This document shows, one piece after another, positions 5,217 to 60,100 of a stretch of DNA of 64,000 nucleotides; position 1 is the stretch's first letter, and the number at the start of each line of letters is the position of its first letter. Location of the stretch: the sequence record MN850590.1. The stretch is one strand, 5' to 3'. A program made the position numbers and the translations under genes. The stretch comes from Escherichia phage moha. The notes beneath the pieces were generated by a model. The model saw only the letters and a list, made by a program, of their open reading frames with translations, did no database searches and was not told the origin of the DNA.

Positions 5217-5225
5217 TAATGTACA

Positions 5226-5259
5226 ACGATAGGAAGACATGTTATTATCTTCCTATCGT
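5226..5259 (+). promoter_or_regulatory. Perfect 12-bp inverted repeat hairpin
   Basis: ACGATAGGAAGA-10 nt-TCTTCCTATCGT; loop contains TTATTA; no clear U-tract. Confidence 0.4.
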
Positions 5260-5279: not shown

Positions 5280-5519
5280 ATGGCCCAAGAATTAGATTTT
5301 ATCAAATTCAAAAAACACCTCGACGTTAAAATTGGGGATTCAATTGTTAGGATTGAGTATGACATTTTAACAGATGCTATTACTGTTAGTTGTGATGGAA
5401 ATAGTTTCAGCTTCGATACAACCGAAAACAAATACCCAATCTATAAAGGCATCTTTGATATGGGTGTTGATATTACTCCACGTGATACAAATTACTTACT
5501 TTTCATGCTTAAAAAATAG
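5280..5519 (+). CDS. Hypothetical protein
   Basis: 79-aa ORF, GAGGAAAA RBS. Confidence 0.55.
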   Translation: MAQELDFIKFKKHLDVKIGDSIVRIEYDILTDAITVSCDGNSFSFDTTENKYPIYKGIFDMGVDITPRDTNYLLFMLKK

Positions 5520-5555
5520 TATACAAACTCTTGAGAGATGAGTATAATTCTCTCG
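5518..5555 (+). promoter_or_regulatory. Early-type promoter with IR around the -10 (copy 1 of a duplicated 30-mer)
   Basis: GTATACAAACTCTTGAGAGATGAGTATAAT; -10 TATAAT at 5543-5548 between GAGAGA/TCTCTC arms. Confidence 0.45.
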
Positions 5556-5585
5556 TTGGATAATAAAATAACCGAGGAAAATAAT

Positions 5586-27488: not shown

Positions 27489-27536
27489 GTTTACTTCTCC
27501 AGTAGTTGTGTTATTATAGATCTATCAACTACTGGA
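27488..27536 (+). promoter_or_regulatory. Early-type promoter embedded in 12-bp inverted repeat that includes the downstream SD
   Basis: -35 GTTTAC 27488-27493, -10 TATTAT 27511-27516; arms CTCCAGTAGTTG (27496-27507) and CAACTACTGGAG (27525-27536). Confidence 0.55.
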
Positions 27537-27543
27537 GAACAAA

Positions 27544-27861
27544 ATGAAAACCATCGATTGTAAAGCAGAATTTAAGATTTTTTATCAAGGTTCAAGTAGT
27601 TCAGCTAACATCGAAAACATGCTTTGTCCTCCTGAAGAAACAGGAGTTCTGTCTGAAACTGGACGTAAGAAAAACTTGGATCGTGTATTCTTTACTGAAG
27701 ATATCGGTTTAGCAAAGATTTATGCAGGACGAGCAGCACGCTCTTATGGAGGTGAACCACGTCTCTATCGAGTAATTTCTCCGGTAGATGTAGTTCAAAT
27801 GAATGATACTAAAGGCGCTACAGTTTATCACGCTGAATGGGCCTTTTGCGAGGAAATATGA
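27544..27861 (+). CDS. Hypothetical protein
   Basis: 105-aa ORF with GGAG RBS. Confidence 0.5.
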   Translation: MKTIDCKAEFKIFYQGSSSSANIENMLCPPEETGVLSETGRKKNLDRVFFTEDIGLAKIYAGRAARSYGGEPRLYRVISPVDVVQMNDTKGATVYHAEWAFCEEI

Positions 27862-29006: not shown

Positions 29007-29041
29007 GTTTACATTATAGATGGACTATAGTATAGTAGTCC
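29007..29041 (+). promoter_or_regulatory. Early-type promoter with short IR
   Basis: -35 GTTTAC 29007-29012, -10 TATAGT; GGACTA/TAGTCC arms. Confidence 0.45.
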
Positions 29042-29065
29042 TATCAAATCAACTAAGGAGTTAAA

Positions 29066-34770: not shown

Positions 34771-35352
34771 ATGACATGTCAATCTGAACTTCAAGAACGT
34801 GAATACCTAACAAATCTGATTGATAGCAAATTCACCCGCCAAGAACAAAACATTCTCTGGGCTTGCACCGATTCTAAGGAAGACCCGGATTTCCACTATG
34901 AATTAGACCATCTTGTTCGTAAGCATATGACTTCTACAGTACCAGTAGAACTCTACCGTGGTGTAACTCCAGAAGAAGTAGAACGTCTTTCACTTCTTTC
35001 TGTTGGATGCCATTGGTCTCCTGGACGAGTAACATCGTTCACAACTGATTTCAGTACAGCTCGTCAATTCTCTGGGAGATGGGAATATCAGACGTACACT
35101 ATTCTTAGTCTCAGGAATGCTCCATTCATTTTTGATTACTACCAAAACATGATTAACATTGTACTCGCCGGAAAGAACCCTAAGCATGTTATGGAAGAAA
35201 AGCGTGTTGACGTCTTAGATATGATTGAATCCGAACAAGAGTACATGGTCTCAGGTATCTCTAGATTTGAGATTGTGGAAATTGAAGACTTAGAATATGA
35301 CCCTTTATCTCGATTATACAAAATCATTCATTTGAAAATGTTGAATTTTTAG
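34771..35352 (+). CDS. ADP-ribosyltransferase-like protein (ModB-like, paralog 1)
   Basis: R-S-E pattern: LYRG, S/T-rich block FTTDFSTA, acidic EQEYMV; paralogous to next gene. Confidence 0.55.
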   Translation: MTCQSELQEREYLTNLIDSKFTRQEQNILWACTDSKEDPDFHYELDHLVRKHMTSTVPVELYRGVTPEEVERLSLLSVGCHWSPGRVTSFTTDFSTARQFSGRWEYQTYTILSLRNAPFIFDYYQNMINIVLAGKNPKHVMEEKRVDVLDMIESEQEYMVSGISRFEIVEIEDLEYDPLSRLYKIIHLKMLNF

Positions 35353-35410
35353 TGTACAAACTCTTCCAATGATGATACTATTACCTTTATCAACCACAGG
35401 AGAAACCTAA

Positions 35411-39235: not shown

Positions 39236-39265
39236 GTTTACAACCAAGGATGGTTGGAGTATAAT
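39236..39265 (+). promoter_or_regulatory. Early-type promoter (copy 1 of duplicated unit)
   Basis: -35 GTTTAC, -10 TATAAT; CCAAGGATGGTTGGAGTATAATG. Confidence 0.5.
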
Positions 39266-39296
39266 GAATCTATCTTAACCAAACAGGAAAAACATT

Positions 39297-39791
39297 ATGA
39301 ATATCAATACTACGGCTACTTACATCCTGAAAGACGAAAAACAAATCAACTGGTACGGTGCTTCAGTGCGAGCTTATGAAAAGTTTTGTGAAATTTTAGG
39401 TGCCACTCAAGGTAATAGTTTCACTATTGTTAACTTCATCAAACAAGCTGAAGGCCCTTGGTTATTCTTAGAAATTAAAAATTCACACGGTACAATTTCT
39501 ACTACCGCCATTCCAAGCACCGACTTTGAACTGTTGATTGAAGAAGTAGAACCTGTTAAAGACATCTGTATTGATACGGATATCGCTTGTATGTACGGTA
39601 CTCTGATTAAGCCTATTGAGCCTACTGATTTGCTGTGTAAATATGTTTCAATTCGACGCCCATTCGCTGGTCCAGTAAATGGATGGGTAACTGATCAGTG
39701 GATTGAAGACGGTGTTGAACTTCTGAACGTTGTTCATGCAGGTGATTTTAGTGTAGTTCCACGTAGTGCTGTGGTTAATATTCTAAATTAA
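39297..39791 (+). CDS. Hypothetical protein, tandem paralog family member A
   Basis: C-terminal block WVTDQWIEDGVELLNVVHAGDFSVVP shared with next two genes. Confidence 0.5.
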   Translation: MNINTTATYILKDEKQINWYGASVRAYEKFCEILGATQGNSFTIVNFIKQAEGPWLFLEIKNSHGTISTTAIPSTDFELLIEEVEPVKDICIDTDIACMYGTLIKPIEPTDLLCKYVSIRRPFAGPVNGWVTDQWIEDGVELLNVVHAGDFSVVPRSAVVNILN

Positions 39792-39851: not shown

Positions 39852-40316
39852 ATGATTACTATTGGTGAAATTAAGCGTGTATCGACAGCGTCTCGTTCTA
39901 AAGCTGCAGGAAAGCTGGTTGAAGTAGTAGGACTTCGTACTAATGGCATGGGCCGTATTAAAGAAGTTAAAGTTCGAATCATTCCTAGTTCTGGAAAAAC
40001 TGAAACTCAGTTCGCCTATGTAAGTCCTAAATTCTTGGAAACTCGTGTAAGTGCCCACTTTGCTTCAAGCGATATCGTTGAGCCTACTACACAGTTCAAA
40101 TGGGCCTTATGTAAAGGTGTTGAATTCCAGACTGATAAAGAATTTGACTTCATCGATGAATACGGTTATCCAAGCAAAACTGATACTATGTGTGGCTTCA
40201 TTAGCGACCAATGGGTTGAAGATGGTAAAAAGCTATACAATATTGTATTCTTAGGTGACTTCCGAGTTGTTGAAGAATCTGAAATCACTCGCTATGTGTC
40301 TCCTCGTAAAGCTTAA
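39852..40316 (+). CDS. Hypothetical protein, tandem paralog family member B
   Basis: ASRSKAAGKLVEV and FISDQWVEDGKKLYNIVFLGDFRVV blocks. Confidence 0.5.
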   Translation: MITIGEIKRVSTASRSKAAGKLVEVVGLRTNGMGRIKEVKVRIIPSSGKTETQFAYVSPKFLETRVSAHFASSDIVEPTTQFKWALCKGVEFQTDKEFDFIDEYGYPSKTDTMCGFISDQWVEDGKKLYNIVFLGDFRVVEESEITRYVSPRKA

Positions 40317-40325
40317 GGAATTATT

Positions 40326-40745
40326 ATGAATATTGTAAATCTCTCTACAGGTGATTACGTACACGTATCGGATGCTTCTCGCTCTAAAGTTGCCGGGAAG
40401 TTGGTTGAAGTTCTTTCTGTGAGTGATCCGGTTTTTGGACGTAACGAAGTTAAAGTTCGTGACGCCGATGGTAACATTGGTTACGTCTCAAGCCAGTTCA
40501 TTGAACCAGAAGAAAAAGCGTTCAAATGGAAACTGTGCAGGTCAGTTTTAGTTGTAAAAGATCATGAATTTACTATTGCTGCCGCAACTGATGGGTCTCC
40601 ATGGACAACGAATCAAGTCGCTGGTTTTATTTCAGACCAATGGGTTGAAGATGGTGTTAAGCTTTATAACATCGTTTTCGCCGGACAGTTCATGGTAGTT
40701 CCTGAATTCCAAATCAAAGGATATAGCCAAGCATCTTTTGCATAA
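40326..40745 (+). CDS. Hypothetical protein, tandem paralog family member C
   Basis: ASRSKVAGKLVEV and FISDQWVEDGVKLYNIVFAGQFMVVP blocks. Confidence 0.5.
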   Translation: MNIVNLSTGDYVHVSDASRSKVAGKLVEVLSVSDPVFGRNEVKVRDADGNIGYVSSQFIEPEEKAFKWKLCRSVLVVKDHEFTIAAATDGSPWTTNQVAGFISDQWVEDGVKLYNIVFAGQFMVVPEFQIKGYSQASFA

Positions 40746-40749
40746 AGTA

Positions 40750-40798
40750 GTTTACTTCTCCTCTGGTTTTGATATTATAACCATATCAACCAGAGGAG
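40750..40798 (+). promoter_or_regulatory. Early-type promoter embedded in 11-bp inverted repeat that includes the downstream SD
   Basis: -35 GTTTAC 40750-40755, -10 TATTAT 40773-40778; arms CTCCTCTGGTT (40758-40768) and AACCAGAGGAG (40788-40798). Confidence 0.55.
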
Positions 40799-40804
40799 AA
40801 TAAT

Positions 40805-41329
40805 ATGTTAGTTTACCGCGTAGAACGTAGTTTTTGTACTCAACGTGAATCATTACCCGGAATTGCTATCGAAGACGGTAAAGCCGTCAGAATTTGGGAA
40901 ACCTCTTGGAATAAAGAACCTCGCTCGCCGTACGGTTGGTCGGGTACCGACAACTCTGAAGAAACATGGGAGTTCCTTGATAAACACGGAATACTCTCAG
41001 GTAACTTCTACCATCACGGCGACAACTATAATGTCCCTAATCGTCCTACAGTAAATGAAGACAAACTCCTTGAACAAAATATCTTAAGATACTATAGAAT
41101 TGAGCACACATTTGAATTGAGTGAAGATTGGGCTCAAGGGTTCTATTTTGGATTTGAAAGTGTTGACGCGGTTTATACATGGTTTGATGACCAGGTGGAT
41201 GTTGAACTCTTGAAAGCTAAAGGATACTACATCGCGGTCTATGAAGCACCTGATTTCATACTCGGAAGTTGTCAATTAATGTTCAGACGTTCATTAGCAG
41301 AACAAGTTGATTTTATTTTGCTAAAATGA
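40805..41329 (+). CDS. Hypothetical protein
   Basis: 174-aa ORF with GAGGAG RBS. Confidence 0.5.
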   Translation: MLVYRVERSFCTQRESLPGIAIEDGKAVRIWETSWNKEPRSPYGWSGTDNSEETWEFLDKHGILSGNFYHHGDNYNVPNRPTVNEDKLLEQNILRYYRIEHTFELSEDWAQGFYFGFESVDAVYTWFDDQVDVELLKAKGYYIAVYEAPDFILGSCQLMFRRSLAEQVDFILLK

Positions 41330-49965: not shown

Positions 49966-50001
49966 GTTTACAACTAAGTAGGACTATGATATATTAGTCC
50001 T
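49966..50001 (+). promoter_or_regulatory. Early-type promoter with IR
   Basis: -35 GTTTAC 49966-49971; AGGACTA/TAGTCCT arms flank the -10 region. Confidence 0.45.
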
Positions 50002-50021
50002 ATCTAAAAGAGGATAACATC

Positions 50022-50285
50022 ATGAAATTTAAATTTTTCTACGCAAAACATAAAGTAACAGGCGAATTTGTTTCAATGTACAACACTGCAGATGACGAAG
50101 GGATGATTTATACCCATTTGGGTCTATCTCATTGGGACTCAGACGTGCCTTATATGTCATCTGAAGCCGAAATAACTCGTTTAGTTAACGGACATATGAA
50201 CGACCATTTTAGTGTTATTCTTTCTAAAGACCTTAAAGAGGTTATCAACAAAGGATATATGGAACTTGCGGAAGTTGAGATATGA
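50022..50285 (+). CDS. Hypothetical protein
   Basis: 87-aa ORF with AGAGGA RBS. Confidence 0.5.
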   Translation: MKFKFFYAKHKVTGEFVSMYNTADDEGMIYTHLGLSHWDSDVPYMSSEAEITRLVNGHMNDHFSVILSKDLKEVINKGYMELAEVEI

Positions 50286-50474
50286 GCTCTAAAATGTGGA
50301 TCGGAATATGGTTGCTTAGTATCCCTATGATTTGTATAATATTTTCAATTGCATTGAGGTACTTATGAAAAATGCACTTATTGTATTAAGAACAATTTGT
50401 GATACGGGTTTTTACATTGCATGTTCGTTCACTGGAACATGGATGGCTTTAACATATTTTAATGTAATTTAATT

Positions 50475-50512
50475 GTTTACATCACGGTAGGATTATGGTA
50501 TAGTAGTCCTAC
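50475..50512 (+). promoter_or_regulatory. Early-type promoter with IR
   Basis: -35 GTTTAC 50475-50480, -10 TATAGT; GTAGGA/TCCTAC arms. Confidence 0.45.
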
Positions 50513-50532
50513 TGAAACATGAGGAACACAAA

Positions 50533-50733
50533 ATGGCTAAGCTTTTTAAAGATGTTGAAATTGGTGAAAAATTTGTTCTGAATAATGGTCAGCAGCTTAT
50601 TCGTGTAGCTTCTATCGCCGGACAAACTCATAACTGTATCGCCCCAACGTGTTGGACTCGATTCTTTATTGAAGATGACACTGAATGTTTAACTGTTGAA
50701 GAGCTTTTTGAACGTTCTGATATGACCGAATAA
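50533..50733 (+). CDS. Hypothetical protein
   Basis: 66-aa ORF with GAGGAA RBS. Confidence 0.45.
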   Translation: MAKLFKDVEIGEKFVLNNGQQLIRVASIAGQTHNCIAPTCWTRFFIEDDTECLTVEELFERSDMTE

Positions 50734-50737
50734 AATT

Positions 50738-50771
50738 GTACAAACTCTTGAGAGCAGAGTATAATGCTCTC
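50738..50771 (+). promoter_or_regulatory. Early-type promoter with IR (copy 2 of duplicated 30-mer)
   Basis: TGTACAAACTCTTGAGAGCAGAGTATAAT; -10 TATAAT 50760-50765 between GAGAGCA/TGCTCTC arms. Confidence 0.45.
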
Positions 50772-50809
50772 ATGGATTACAAAAACATTAATCAATTGAG
50801 GAAATTAGC

Positions 50810-51256
50810 ATGTCCAAATATTTAACTCGTAAAGACCTTCTGGCAGTTGGCGGTGAAGTTGTTGCAGTAGTTCGTAATGGCGAATACGGTTCTGAAGTTT
50901 CTAAAGAGTTTCGTTCTCGTGAAGGTTTTTACTTCTTCGTTAAAGGTTCATCTGATTGGCGACAAGTAGCAGCACGATTCTTTGTAGGACGTCAACGTTC
51001 TAAACAAGGGTTGGATGCAATTCTTTCTCACATTCGTCAAGGCCGTTCGCAACTAGCCCGTACCATGGGCACTAACAATATTGAATATGATGTAATCTTT
51101 GTTGCAGCTAAGAACATGAAACCACTGACCACTGGTTATGGTAAAGGTCAATTGGCTCTGGCATTCACTCGCAATCATACATCAGAATATCAAACACTCA
51201 CCGAAATGAACCGTCTTCTGGCCGATAATTTCAAATTCATTCTGCAGAGTTACTAA
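50810..51256 (+). CDS. Hypothetical protein, possibly Ndd-like
   Basis: 148 aa; position between rIIB and 52; Ndd assignment from weak recollection only. Confidence 0.4.
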
Positions 51257-53072: not shown

Positions 53073-53111
53073 AGACCTATCAAAACAAAACAACCAAATT
53101 GGAGAAATAAA

Positions 53112-57126: not shown

Positions 57127-60100
57127 TTATGCTAAACGAACGATATAGTTAAAAGCAACGTTTTTAACTGTGTTTTCTGTATTTCCTGTGGCATTTACAG
57201 TTATTGTATGTCCATGGGAACCAATCGCTACCGAATGAGAGTGGGCACCAATACCTACAGTATGTGTATGGGCACCGATACCCACAGTATGAGCATGGTT
57301 ACCTGTGGTACTTGTAGTTCCTGACCAACTATGGGTGTGGGCACCATCTGAAGAAGTTTTGGCCATATTCGACGATGCAGTAGCACCGCTCACGGTTGCA
57401 GTGAATTTAGCGTTGCCGTTTGGACCCGCACTATTGTATCCATCATAGAATATGCTAGTGGGTATGCCGCCTTGTACCTGAGGACCTGAACGCGCGTGTT
57501 GGTGCGCACCAGCGGAACTAGTATTACCACTCACTGTATGGCTATGGTTGCCAGTGGTATTACTGGTCTTAGTACCATAATCAAAGCTTGAAGTCGTTTT
57601 GCTACCGTAATCAAAACTAGAAGTGGTCTTAGTACCCAAATCTGTGCTTGATGCACTTGCACTATGGCTATGTGACTTAACACCGTCTGCTTCTGTACTC
57701 AATACATCACGCCCAGATGGTTTACCCTTAATAGTTTGCCCACGCATATCAGGAATAGTACCTGTTGGATACGCTGCCGCTAGTTTAGGATATGCAGACT
57801 TATCAAAGGTTTGACCTTCCATTAAAGCGAACCCGGCTGGAACTGAATCACTTGGCCATGGAATCGGAGCACCGACTGGATAAGGTATTTGAGCATCAGA
57901 ATACATCATATACACTTGACCAACGAGATGACCAGCGGGTAATTCTGTTACTGGTGTTTGATATCCACCATTAAGTCCAATTACCGAAATATAACGGGTA
58001 TTTTCTGTGGCGTCATATTCAACTATAAGTTTGTCTGCATAAGTCCCAGCATACAGATAAACGTCATAATCATCACCGGAGGTATTAATTGTTGCTATAT
58101 TAGTAAATCCATTACCCGTGCGCCCCCATAAAGTGGCGTTAATACCTTTAGGATTGTTATTACTGGTACGAAGAACTACTTCAGTAATTGTAGCCTGTTC
58201 TGGTGAATTGGCATTATATCCATTACCACCTATAATCTTAAATTGGACGGTAGAAACTGATTGTGGCATAGTTACAGTAGCAAATTTATACCATCCTGCA
58301 GTTGAACTACCGGACCAAGTTCCGACCTTAACTCTACGTTCTAAAGTTGTGTTCAGGTTAGCAAAATTACCAGAACCACCTGTGATGTTACCATCGGTTC
58401 CAATCTGGGTTGAACCTATTCTAAGAGGTTTAGCTATATCAACCGTATCAGAGTTTAATGCAATACCATGGGAGTAGGTGTAACTATGCATACGAACGAC
58501 GTTTCCGCCATCGCCAATACCCAAATACCATTTTGTGACATCTGCTTTACGTCCTTGGATGAAGTTAGAAGACTCTTGTGTTGGAGCATTTATTCTAATA
58601 GCATCTGATGCTGTATTTATTGTTATACGCTGACCTGCTGTAGTACCGGATGCTTCTACTTTAAATCTACCGCCACCGATATCTACATCATGATCCATGG
58701 AAACTTTACCATTACTTAATGCAATATAGAACGGACGTAAATTAGAAATACCACCTGTTTCACCAGCGTTCTGCGGAGTTGGAATAATATAAAGCTTATC
58801 TTCAGAACGACGGAAAATAGCACCATATTCGGCATTCCAAATTCTTAATGCATCTGCTGTTCCACCAAATTTAGCTTGTCCGTTTACAGATAATCCATTA
58901 TTTGCAACTAAACTTGATTCACTAACAATAGAACCGGCCGATATAATACCACCACCCACACGTAAAGCGCCGGAAATTCTAAATTGGAGAGAACCGACAG
59001 TTTCAGAACCTGTTGGAGCTAAACGTTGAGAATAAAAATGATAGCCCTGGCCGTCATACAATTCAAATACGGTTTCACGATTACCGGCAGTGGAGTCGAA
59101 TGCATTACCCCAAGCTTTCATAGTTAAATAACTTTTATTTTGTCCTGCACGGGACCCGGCATTCCACTGGATAGTTCTCGAGCCATCAACTTTGCTAGGG
59201 GCGCCAAATTTAAGTCCTGCAGTATTATTAGAACTATTTAAAAATAATTCGTTGTCCAATTTAACAGGTTGGATAGAAGAAATAGTGCCATCAGCATAAA
59301 ACTGTACATTATTAGAGCCAGTTACCAATTTCAAAATACCCGGGTTAATTTCCATACCTTCCTGTGTATTAATGTTGGTTTGGCCTTTACCACGGAAATA
59401 ATGGGAAAATTTACCGCCAGAATTATATCCAATGTGGGTTTGACCATCACCTGCATTGTTTGTATCAGCCTGGGTTTGAACCGATAAAAGCGCGGCGTTG
59501 ATTCCAGGCATGGTCCAGGTTCCGCCTTGGTCTTCTGAGCGTCCAAATAACGCTTTACGAGTACTACGGAAACTGTCAGGTGTAATAGAAGCAACAGAAT
59601 TCCAATTACCTACTAAATCATAAACGCCTTGCTTAATATATTTTAAACCAGTTGCAGCATCGCCCAAAGCAATATATCTTTCTCCCATTGGAGTAGGAGA
59701 GCCGTAGTTGTTAGTATTTTCGTCAGCAGTAATTGTGCCAATAGCAAGTGAACGACGTAATACCATTGCTCCATCATTACGAAGACCCATTAATTTAGTA
59801 GTAAGTGTATTTCCGGTCCACCAAGAAATTTCATCATTCTTACCAGTTTGAGCTGAAGCGATTTCATGGTAAATGGTTCCACCTGATTTAGCTCGAACTT
59901 TACGAAGATAGTTTATACCATTTTCTTCACCTGTTCCAGGATAAACATATTGAACTAATGACTGCGAATCGTATTGTCCAAATGCTTTTGTGTCTAAAAC
60001 AATGGTTTTCGTATTAACTTGTGGAGCAGAAACTATACCATTAGCGGAGTTAATATTGCCTGACGCAGAAATATTACCTTTGCTGACAAATAAATCACCA

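Follow-up and report, generated by a model that had tools for sequence, protein, structure and literature searches.

Two copies of an early-promoter element

At 99.9% identity, the 64,000-nucleotide stretch of Escherichia phage moha analyzed here (MN850590.1; hereafter the window) matches Escherichia phage vB_EcoM_G53 as well as further Mosigvirus (RB69-like T-even) genomes, and the + strand of the window is the early-gene strand. Two intergenic regions on this strand carry near-identical copies of a 26-nt motif, ACAAACTCTTGAGAG(A/C)(T/A)GAGTATAAT, one ahead of the ortholog of T4 55.2 (copy 1) and one ahead of the nucleoid disruption gene ndd (copy 2), the latter with denB upstream and gene 52 downstream of ndd (Table 1). 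The original prediction had placed each copy ahead of a small unknown gene; both copies are indeed intergenic with a gene downstream, but the genes can be identified. T4 gp55.2 inhibits E. coli topoisomerase I and is the product of an early transcript (PMC4396842). Both 55.2 and ndd are early in T4, and both proteins act on the host nucleoid. In the upstream neighbor of copy 1, a 'direct repeat / StbAB site' annotation in ATK47 that came up under a BLAST match was set aside as an unrelated 11-nt feature inside ORF075c.

Searched as ACAAACTCTTGAGAGNNGAGTATAAT, the motif occurs exactly twice in the window, on the + strand in both cases and 45,217 bp apart, with 24 of the 26 positions identical and no occurrence expected by chance. 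A near-identical element duplicated some 45 kb apart is therefore what we find, as had been predicted, with the earlier coordinates off by 2 nt for copy 1 and by 1 nt for copy 2. Allowing up to three mismatches adds no further match, and 100 dinucleotide-preserving shuffles of the window gave none. The likeness of the copies reaches past the motif, over 57 nt at 77% identity (repeat family D11). Outside the -10 hexamer they share 27 of 35 aligned positions, the second-highest count among the 171 promoter pairs of the window (mean 13.1, standard deviation 5.1); the most similar pair, with 28 of 35, is the one whose -10 hexamers end at 39265 and 39823. Against a covariance model of the cassette family the copies score 74 and 73.6 bits and the next match 19.3 bits: in this search of the window for further copies the two alone score high, and the rest are weak matches at other early promoters. 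A half-match at 35344-35393, at the early promoter 35349-35395, shares GTGTACAAACTCTT, has the -10 TACTAT and lacks a hairpin; this promoter may be a half-related or decayed member of the family. A repeat of a different sort lies at 57564-57651, where three copies of a 28-nt unit follow each other with a 30-nt period at 75-82% identity, probably because a late gene on the other strand encodes a protein repeat of 10 residues.

Table 1. Positions in the window of the two cassettes, their parts and their neighbors
Feature	Position	Strand	Details
Second, different promoter and hairpin cassette	5220-5257	+	-35 TGTACA 5220-5225; arms GATAGGAAG 5228-5236 and CTTCCTATC 5249-5257 around TATTAT 5243-5248
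79-aa open reading frame (ORF)	5280-5519	+	phrog_11314, RB69 ORF075c-like; upstream of copy 1
Copy 1 A-rich (UP-like) stretch	5511-5516	+	followed by the stop codon
Copy 1 stop codon TAG	5517-5519	+	ends ORF 5280-5519
Copy 1 cassette span	stop 5517-5519 to ATG 5586	+	
Copy 1 -35, GTATACA	5519-5525	+	hexamer TATACA 5520-5525; one mismatch to the T4 early consensus GTTTACA
Copy 1 26-nt motif	5523-5548	+	
Copy 1 hairpin	5532-5555	+	left arm (T)GAGAGA 5532-5538 in the spacer; loop 5539-5548 with the -10; right arm TCTCTC(G) 5549-5555
Copy 1 -10, TATAAT	5543-5548	+	17-bp spacer; predicted start about G5555, from the usual 7-nt distance
Copy 1 RegB-type site	5558-5568	+	GGATAATAAAA; 11/11 match to GGA(G/U)RAYARAA
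55.2 ortholog	ATG 5586 to stop 5918	+	Shine-Dalgarno (SD) sequence GAGG 5574-5577; 110 aa, 75% identical to T4 gp55.2
Two further early promoter and hairpin cassettes, subfamily D1	49966-50007, 50475-50516	+	between denB and ndd
66-aa ORF	50533-50733	+	upstream neighbor of copy 2
Copy 2 stop codon TAA	50731-50733	+	
Copy 2 A-rich stretch	50732-50735	+	
Copy 2 cassette span	stop 50731-50733 to ATG 50810	+	
Copy 2 -35, TTGTACA	hexamer TGTACA 50737-50742	+	two mismatches to GTTTACA
Copy 2 26-nt motif	50740-50765	+	
Copy 2 hairpin, 8 bp	50749-50772	+	TGAGAGCA / TGCTCTCA; loop GAGTATAA (N8); the -10 is the loop plus the closing pair
Copy 2 -10, TATAAT	50760-50765	+	17-bp spacer; predicted start about A50772
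Copy 2 RegB-like site	50774-50784	+	GGATTACAAAA; U at positions 4 and 5, C at position 7
ndd	50810-51256	+	SD GAGG 50798-50801; 148 aa, 59% identical to T4 Ndd; phrog_1102 match

Both copies have the sequence features of T4-type early promoters, the consensus for which comprises a GTTTAC-like -35 at -36 to -31, an A-rich stretch at -40 to -44 and a TATAAT-like -10 (PMC1524935), and both lie on the early strand upstream of early-gene orthologs. Each matches the sigma70 consensus at 10 of 12 positions. Calling the element a promoter was right: the -35, the 17-bp spacer, a perfect TATAAT, the A-rich upstream sequence and the orientation are all in place, and the T4 motB promoter is a homologue. 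The further suggestion of a shared regulatory site stands in the sense of a shared promoter cassette, but not in that of a factor-specific operator. The TAG directly before the -35 is kept in most family members, and the record of a T4-like genome annotates the cassette element as a promoter. The TTGAGA inside the motif was considered as an alternative -35 and rejected, as it lies just 6 nt before TATAAT and is not followed by a suitable -10 at 16-18 nt.

The T4 motB promoter belongs to the same family. Its cassette, TTTACAAACTCTTGggaccaGAGTATAATggtccc (with the downstream sequence to the ATG, TTTACAAACTCTTGggaccaGAGTATAATggtcccgtGGAGTATAAAA), can be read as TTTACAAACTCTTG-GGACCA-GAGTATAAT-GGTCCC-gt-GGAGTATAAAA; the architecture and the invariant blocks are identical to those found here, whereas the stem sequence differs with compensating changes and the cassette in our window serves 55.2 and ndd. 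At T4 motB, primer-extension stops have been attributed to the promoter, and the leader is cleaved by RegB (PMC1702504). By homology to this promoter both copies would be active as early promoters, and with a cassette promoter upstream of each gene, 55.2 and ndd would have promoters of their own.

The + strand of the window holds about 15-19 T4-type early promoters, in agreement with the 57 early promoters predicted for RB69 in a survey that does not mention hairpins (PMC1524935). They fall into subfamilies of near-identical cassettes, with -10 hexamers ending at 39265/39823, 29036/41358/49995/50504, 27517/40778 and 28297/55573. The motB-like genes of the window use another subfamily than the one studied here (39236, 39797): three tandem MotB-like paralogs lie at 39297-39791, 39852-40316 and 40326-40745, the first two behind near-identical promoters. 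In most early promoters of the window a (C/T)TATC(A)A block is found about 4-10 nt past the -10 (for example at 29041-29047, 39270-39276 and 53077-53083), around the predicted starts. This block is absent from both copies and may relate to the reported RB69 preference for C at -3 to -1.

A covarying hairpin around the -10 hexamer

In each copy the -10 hexamer is enclosed by an inverted repeat. The hairpin of copy 1, GAGAGA-N10-TCTCTC, is the weakest of the family, with a predicted RNA minimum free energy (MFE) of -8.5 kcal/mol (z = -1.2), and that of copy 2 has an MFE of -13.9 kcal/mol (z = -3.8). The A:T versus C:G difference between the two stems is compensatory. A hairpin placed around the -10 is an enriched geometry among the early promoters of the window (Mann-Whitney p = 0.004 versus 3000 random 45-mers), and Rfam covariance models gave no match at gathering score across the whole window.

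We scanned IMG/VR with the invariant flanks alone fixed (ACAAACTCTTG-N6-GAGTATAAT), which returned 32 matches at 31 loci. These come from phiE142 (Mosigvirus), from phages of the JS98/QL01/IME281/IME341 type (Dhakavirus) and the VR5/VR20/VR25/VR26 type (Gaprivervirus), from T4-like phages and from metagenomic contigs, with two to four family copies per genome that stand ahead of at least eight different genes. The exact motif is not common genome-wide, at two copies in 64 kb here and two to four per genome in relatives. Its rarity does not extend to the broader class of early promoters with a hairpin around the -10, of which the window alone has at least eight.

For the analysis of covariation we aligned 18 distinct versions from Mosigvirus, Dhakavirus, Gaprivervirus and T4-like phages (alignment A1), chosen by the invariant flanks alone. 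Across the eight-pair stem 98.6% of the cells are paired; with the partner slid by 1-3 columns, the figure drops to 35-52%. Double compensatory changes are present in four of the eight pairs, and the observed pairing or covariation score was reached in 0 of 500 shuffles, although the family sequences are phylogenetically related and the shuffle statistics overstate their independence. Stem types include GAGAGA/TCTCTC, GAGAGC/GCTCTC, GGGACC/GGTCCC and GGGGTC/GACCCC; further compensated stems are GGGAGT/ACTCCC in ESCO47 and, from a looser IMG/VR scan, GAGGAC/GTCCTC and AGGAGC/GCTCCT. The looser pattern, TACAAAC-N11-GAGTATAAT, produced mostly chance matches in unrelated contigs and added six true members. 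As a negative control, its 51 unrelated chance matches form only 0-5 of the seven arm pairs.

The pairing is also asymmetric between strands. Wherever one of the seven core pairs departs from Watson-Crick pairing, the sense strand has G.U or U.G and never A.C. In all 16 variants the sense strand gives the more stable fold, with a mean of -13.0 versus -10.3 kcal/mol for the antisense strand. Given the covariation and the exclusively G.U wobbles of the sense strand, the hairpin is probably selected in read-through RNA; the same two properties argue for a sense-strand structure, and against both a protein operator and a symmetric cruciform. Since the predicted start falls at the end of the right arm, the hairpin would be contained only in transcripts that come from upstream. 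We rate the chances of a role at the RNA level as about even.

In the T4 genes e, soc, 49 and I-TevI a promoter lies inside a hairpin, and only the internally started transcript can be translated; these are late promoters, and the hairpin hides the SD. The elements described here resemble them in that the promoter lies between the arms, with read-through RNA predicted to fold and the cassette's own RNA predicted not to, but differ in that the SD is outside the hairpin in both copies. Two other promoters of the window, 27489-27546 and 40750-40807, carry 12-bp and 11-bp inverted repeats around the -10 (CTCCAGTAGTTG...CAACTACTGGAGaacaaaATG and CTCCTCTGGTT...AACCAGAGGAGaataatATG, with MFEs of -20 and -23 kcal/mol), the right arm of which holds the SD, GGAG, of the next gene. 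Many of the differences between these two repeats are compensated, and the downstream genes belong to phrog_2110 and phrog_1106. According to the predicted folds, read-through RNA would hide this SD and the promoter's own transcript would not. Compensated stems are likewise seen in the D1 subfamily (GGACTA/TAGTCC versus GGTCTA/TAGACC), together with a sense-strand U.G wobble (GGATTA/TAGTCC).

Candidate RegB/S1 sites and probable gene exchange at the cassettes

Immediately after the hairpin every family member has GGA(T/G) followed by an A-rich block. The strong RegB/S1 site has the consensus GG*AGRAYARAA (PMC3014915). The likeness to RegB/S1 sites (Durand et al. 2006, PMC1702504) consists in an 11-nt GGA(G/U)RAYARAA block in an intergenic leader of an early gene; the difference is that the site would lie some 3 nt away from where the cassette's own transcript is predicted to begin, and that copy 2 deviates at positions 5 and 7. 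The sequence at copy 1 is identical to that upstream of T4 55.2, where it holds the sole GGAU of the 55.3/55.2 intergenic stretch. Just two intergenic GGAU sites of T4 are cut by RegB, one of them at ORF 55.2, and RB69 is reported to have one cleaved GGAU (PMC1702504). From the sequence, cleavage of copy 1 by RegB could go either way. The standard RegB substrate known as 'motB RNA' carries U5, U7, A9 and A10 (PMC1702504), and these substitutions fit the sole GGAG of the right flank of the T4 cassette, GGAGTATAAAA.

In short folds the GGA of copy 2 is unpaired, and in copy 1 G5558-G5559 pair weakly with C5529-U5530; in longer folds the RegB motif of copy 1 falls in a weak downstream helix, and that of copy 2 is unpaired in the centroid. 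These weak predicted pairings would be absent from the cassette's own transcript. A looser RegB pattern is found six times in the window versus 3.06 expected, a weak excess.

In T4 itself the 55.3/55.2 intergenic stretch (L036, 486-540) reads GGGCTTCGGCCC-TTTTT-GGATAATAAAAT and contains GGATAATAAAA. Upstream of T4 ndd (L037, 1041-1101; T4 165,990-166,100 region) the hairpin GGCCG-N12-CGGCC is followed by tt and then by GGAGTAGAAAA, and the -10 in its loop has decayed. These two T4 junctions, with a hairpin and a RegB-type site and without a recognisable early promoter, look like 'half' cassettes. That the hairpin and the RegB-type site are kept at the 55.2 and ndd junctions with or without a promoter supports a role at the RNA level.

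We compared the surroundings of the cassettes by pairwise BLAST of their +/-1500-nt flanks. Copy 1 aligns to the Dhakavirus 55.2 loci from -11 to +395 only, and copy 2 to the Gaprivervirus and Dhakavirus ndd loci from -8 to +517 only. Between two of the loci, L024 and L029, identity is 95.8% over the stretch -1497 to +64, past which their genes differ; two others (L019 and L025) have only the stretch from -9 to +201 in common, and homology to T4 begins at position 5556 of the window. The ORF to the left of copy 1 is flanked by two promoter and hairpin cassettes, 5220-5257 and 5519-5555, the former at a position where the genome record of a relative annotates a terminator. This ORF is absent in Mosigvirus ESCO47, which has a single cassette after a 55.3-like gene, is truncated to 8 codons in EP32a and is absent in T4.

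Of 15 variable positions, 10-15 agree between paralogous cassettes of one genome, and only 4-7 between orthologs from different genera. A third Mosigvirus copy, outside the window and ahead of a phrog_1203 gene that the window does not contain, unites a copy 2 stem with a copy 1 right flank, and copy 1 of EP32a carries the stem of copy 2. As far as sequences can tell, these patterns indicate gene conversion or exchange among cassette copies. The earlier idea of a recombination hotspot gains comparative support from the homology blocks that end at the cassette, the ORF indel and the homogenised paralogs. The synteny breaks next to neighboring genes, looked for in relatives, are present: homology stops at the cassettes, and the ORF beside copy 1 comes and goes among Mosigviruses.

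The cassette as a probable gene-junction element

PeSL (promoter-early stem-loop) elements are early promoters with a stem-loop, most often between -35 and -10 or overlapping the latter, and are tied to indels in hyperplastic regions, with the ndd region of T4/PST among the authors' examples (Arbiol et al. 2010, PMC2839356; Comeau et al. 2014, PMC4122927). Our copies share with them the intergenic succession of stop codon, AT-rich stretch, sigma70-like early promoter, stem-loop, SD and ATG, as well as the dispersal in many copies (here two to four per genome) next to indels or replacements. All PeSL features that can be tested on sequence are found: the promoter with its AT-rich upstream stretch, the stem-loop, the stop-to-ATG span and the dispersed copies at indels. 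This fit assigns the element to an already described kind, and we are confident, short of certainty, that it is an early-promoter/stem-loop cassette of the PeSL kind. It differs in the place of the stem-loop, which according to the authors lies just ahead of the promoter in T4/PST and which here has its arms on either side of the -10; the PeSL papers give no covariation analysis, no link to RegB and no RB69-type phages, and they show terminator activity and mini-circle formation for RB49/phi1 elements only. The stretch 49966-50765 of the window is a dense array of three consecutive cassettes (49966, 50475 and 50736), each preceding a small ORF; the corresponding region of T4/PST is cited as hyperplastic by the PeSL authors.

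It is hardly credible that the two copies are independent strong promoters which converged on the consensus with no shared ancestry or exchange. The early promoters of the window do all have -35 and -10 features in common, yet the identity of the copies is concentrated in the arms and in the spacer (AACTCTTGAGAG), which is not part of the consensus, none of the 100 shuffles contained even one match, the count of shared positions is far above the mean for promoter pairs, and the spacer (AACTCTTG) recurs with the architecture at two to four loci per genome in four genera. The inverted repeat might instead be a duplex operator through which a dimeric repressor, of the phage or the host, silences these promoters jointly: a palindrome overlapping the -10 is in the classic operator position, the shut-off of T4 early promoters is not explained by AsiA, and the stems within a genome are alike. 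The arms, however, vary freely with complementarity kept (at least ten stem types, double changes in half of the stem pairs), which is the signature of a folded nucleic acid and not of a sequence contacted by a protein. The mismatches are moreover strand-asymmetric, G.U on the sense strand and never A.C, and the other promoter subfamilies of the same genome have unrelated stems, all of which makes an operator very unlikely.

A hairpin at the DNA level, either a cruciform or a fold of the non-template strand, could show the -10 as a single-stranded loop and aid opening; hairpin promoters of phage N4 and single-strand promoters of conjugative plasmids offer a comparison. It would suit the position of the -10 exactly in the loop, G.T pairs are tolerated in DNA hairpins too, and the strand asymmetry fits the non-template strand as well as RNA. 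Stems of 6-8 bp with loops of 8-10 nt extrude poorly, though, and for a cruciform both strands would have to fold, of which the antisense one has its arm weakened by A.C mismatches. The promoters are also already near the sigma70 consensus. We consider such a structure improbable, also because the ndd and 55.2 positions of T4 keep a hairpin without a usable -10 in the loop (GGCCG-N12-CGGCC and GGGCTTCGGCCC-T5), which speaks for a promoter-independent role in RNA. The PeSL authors read the hairpin as a transcription terminator; taken as its only function, unlinked to RNA processing, this has a modest share of the probability. In its favor, one RB49 PeSL stem-loop lowered the expression of a downstream lacZ to about the extent that rrnB T1 did, a canonical terminator with a UUCG tetraloop occupies the T4 position that corresponds by homology to copy 1, and a relative has a terminator annotated at the neighboring cassette. 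As with Rho-independent terminators, the hairpin follows a stop codon directly and stands at the close of a transcription unit. Unlike such terminators, the hairpins have long loops (8-10 nt) and short stems, that of copy 1 being weak, and no U-tract (they are followed by GTTGGAT and TGGATTA); terminator consensus scans of both regions on both strands made no call at either copy, and in the T4 homologues experiments have defined the conserved GGA(G/U) and A-rich block immediately 3' of the hairpin as a RegB site.

The missing U-tracts and terminator calls also weigh against the cassette reading that we favor, as do several further points. The weak hairpin of copy 1 has a T.T closing mismatch. 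In copy 2, GGAUUACAAAA has a C at position 7, which is absent among the cleaved T4 sites (PMC1702504), so that its cleavage is doubtful. The pattern GGAKRAYARAA is only weakly enriched in the window, with four occurrences versus 1.08 expected and 2 of 100 shuffles reaching four. By synteny with T4, regB lies outside the window, and the regB of RB69 is reported to be divergent (PMC3014915). With respect to recombination, the cassettes on either side of ORF 5280-5519 have only about 8 nt in common, and the junction of the EP32a deletion falls within the ORF; we accordingly rejected simple recombination between the flanking cassettes as the origin of this indel, and not every event can have been cassette-by-cassette recombination. 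Breaks at cassettes could partly reflect that intergenic DNA is where viable junctions survive.

In the cassette reading, each copy would be the core of a portable 'gene-junction' cassette of T-even phages of about 45-75 bp, in the order upstream stop codon, A-rich UP-like stretch, T4-type -35, 17-bp spacer, TATAAT within a 6-8 bp inverted repeat, GGA(U/G) and A-rich block, SD and ATG. Host sigma70 RNA polymerase would start immediate-early transcription about 7 nt past the -10, as the sequence and the homology to the T4 motB promoter suggest. Read-through RNA from an upstream promoter would hold both arms and fold the hairpin, for which the covariation speaks as to structure, with its function a matter of inference; the cassette's own transcripts would begin at the end of the right arm and be unable to fold it. 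Because of this difference the hairpin most likely marks the end of the upstream unit, as an attenuator and/or a 3' protective hairpin. Past the hairpin, the RegB/S1 endoribonuclease would cut and so separate or inactivate early mRNA, as has been shown for T4 homologues; by our analysis this step would be likely at copy 1 and doubtful at copy 2. Finally, since the same 45-75 bp cassette is present at several loci, recombination or gene conversion may homogenise the copies and swap the genes they flank, as comparative genomics suggests and the PeSL model proposes.

More tentatively, the cassette could be a three-in-one 'transcript insulator', the same 40 nt being read twice: in DNA by sigma70 as a promoter, and in read-through RNA alone as a hairpin with a RegB/S1 cut site right on its 3' side. 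Polycistronic early RNA would then be trimmed by RegB, leaving upstream pieces capped by a 3' hairpin and downstream pieces that are quickly inactivated. The pairing of hairpin and RegB site would, if this is so, be a conserved design of T-even gene junctions that the PeSL and RegB papers do not point out.

An RB69-like phage would draw on a single reusable junction module to equip two early genes directed at the host nucleoid, 55.2 and ndd, with immediate-early promoters of their own. The PeSL idea, by which T4-like genomes are reshuffled along seams made of promoter cassettes, gains examples from Mosigvirus, Dhakavirus and Gaprivervirus. What may go beyond the PeSL and RegB papers is the covariation with its sense-strand G.U asymmetry, which argues for selection on RNA, and the hairpin directly adjoining a RegB-type site that has been defined by experiment in the T4 homologues. 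Together, covariation and RegB adjacency yield a testable model of how early polycistronic RNA is partitioned, and the cassettes are predictable breakpoints and landmarks for the annotation and engineering of T-even phages.

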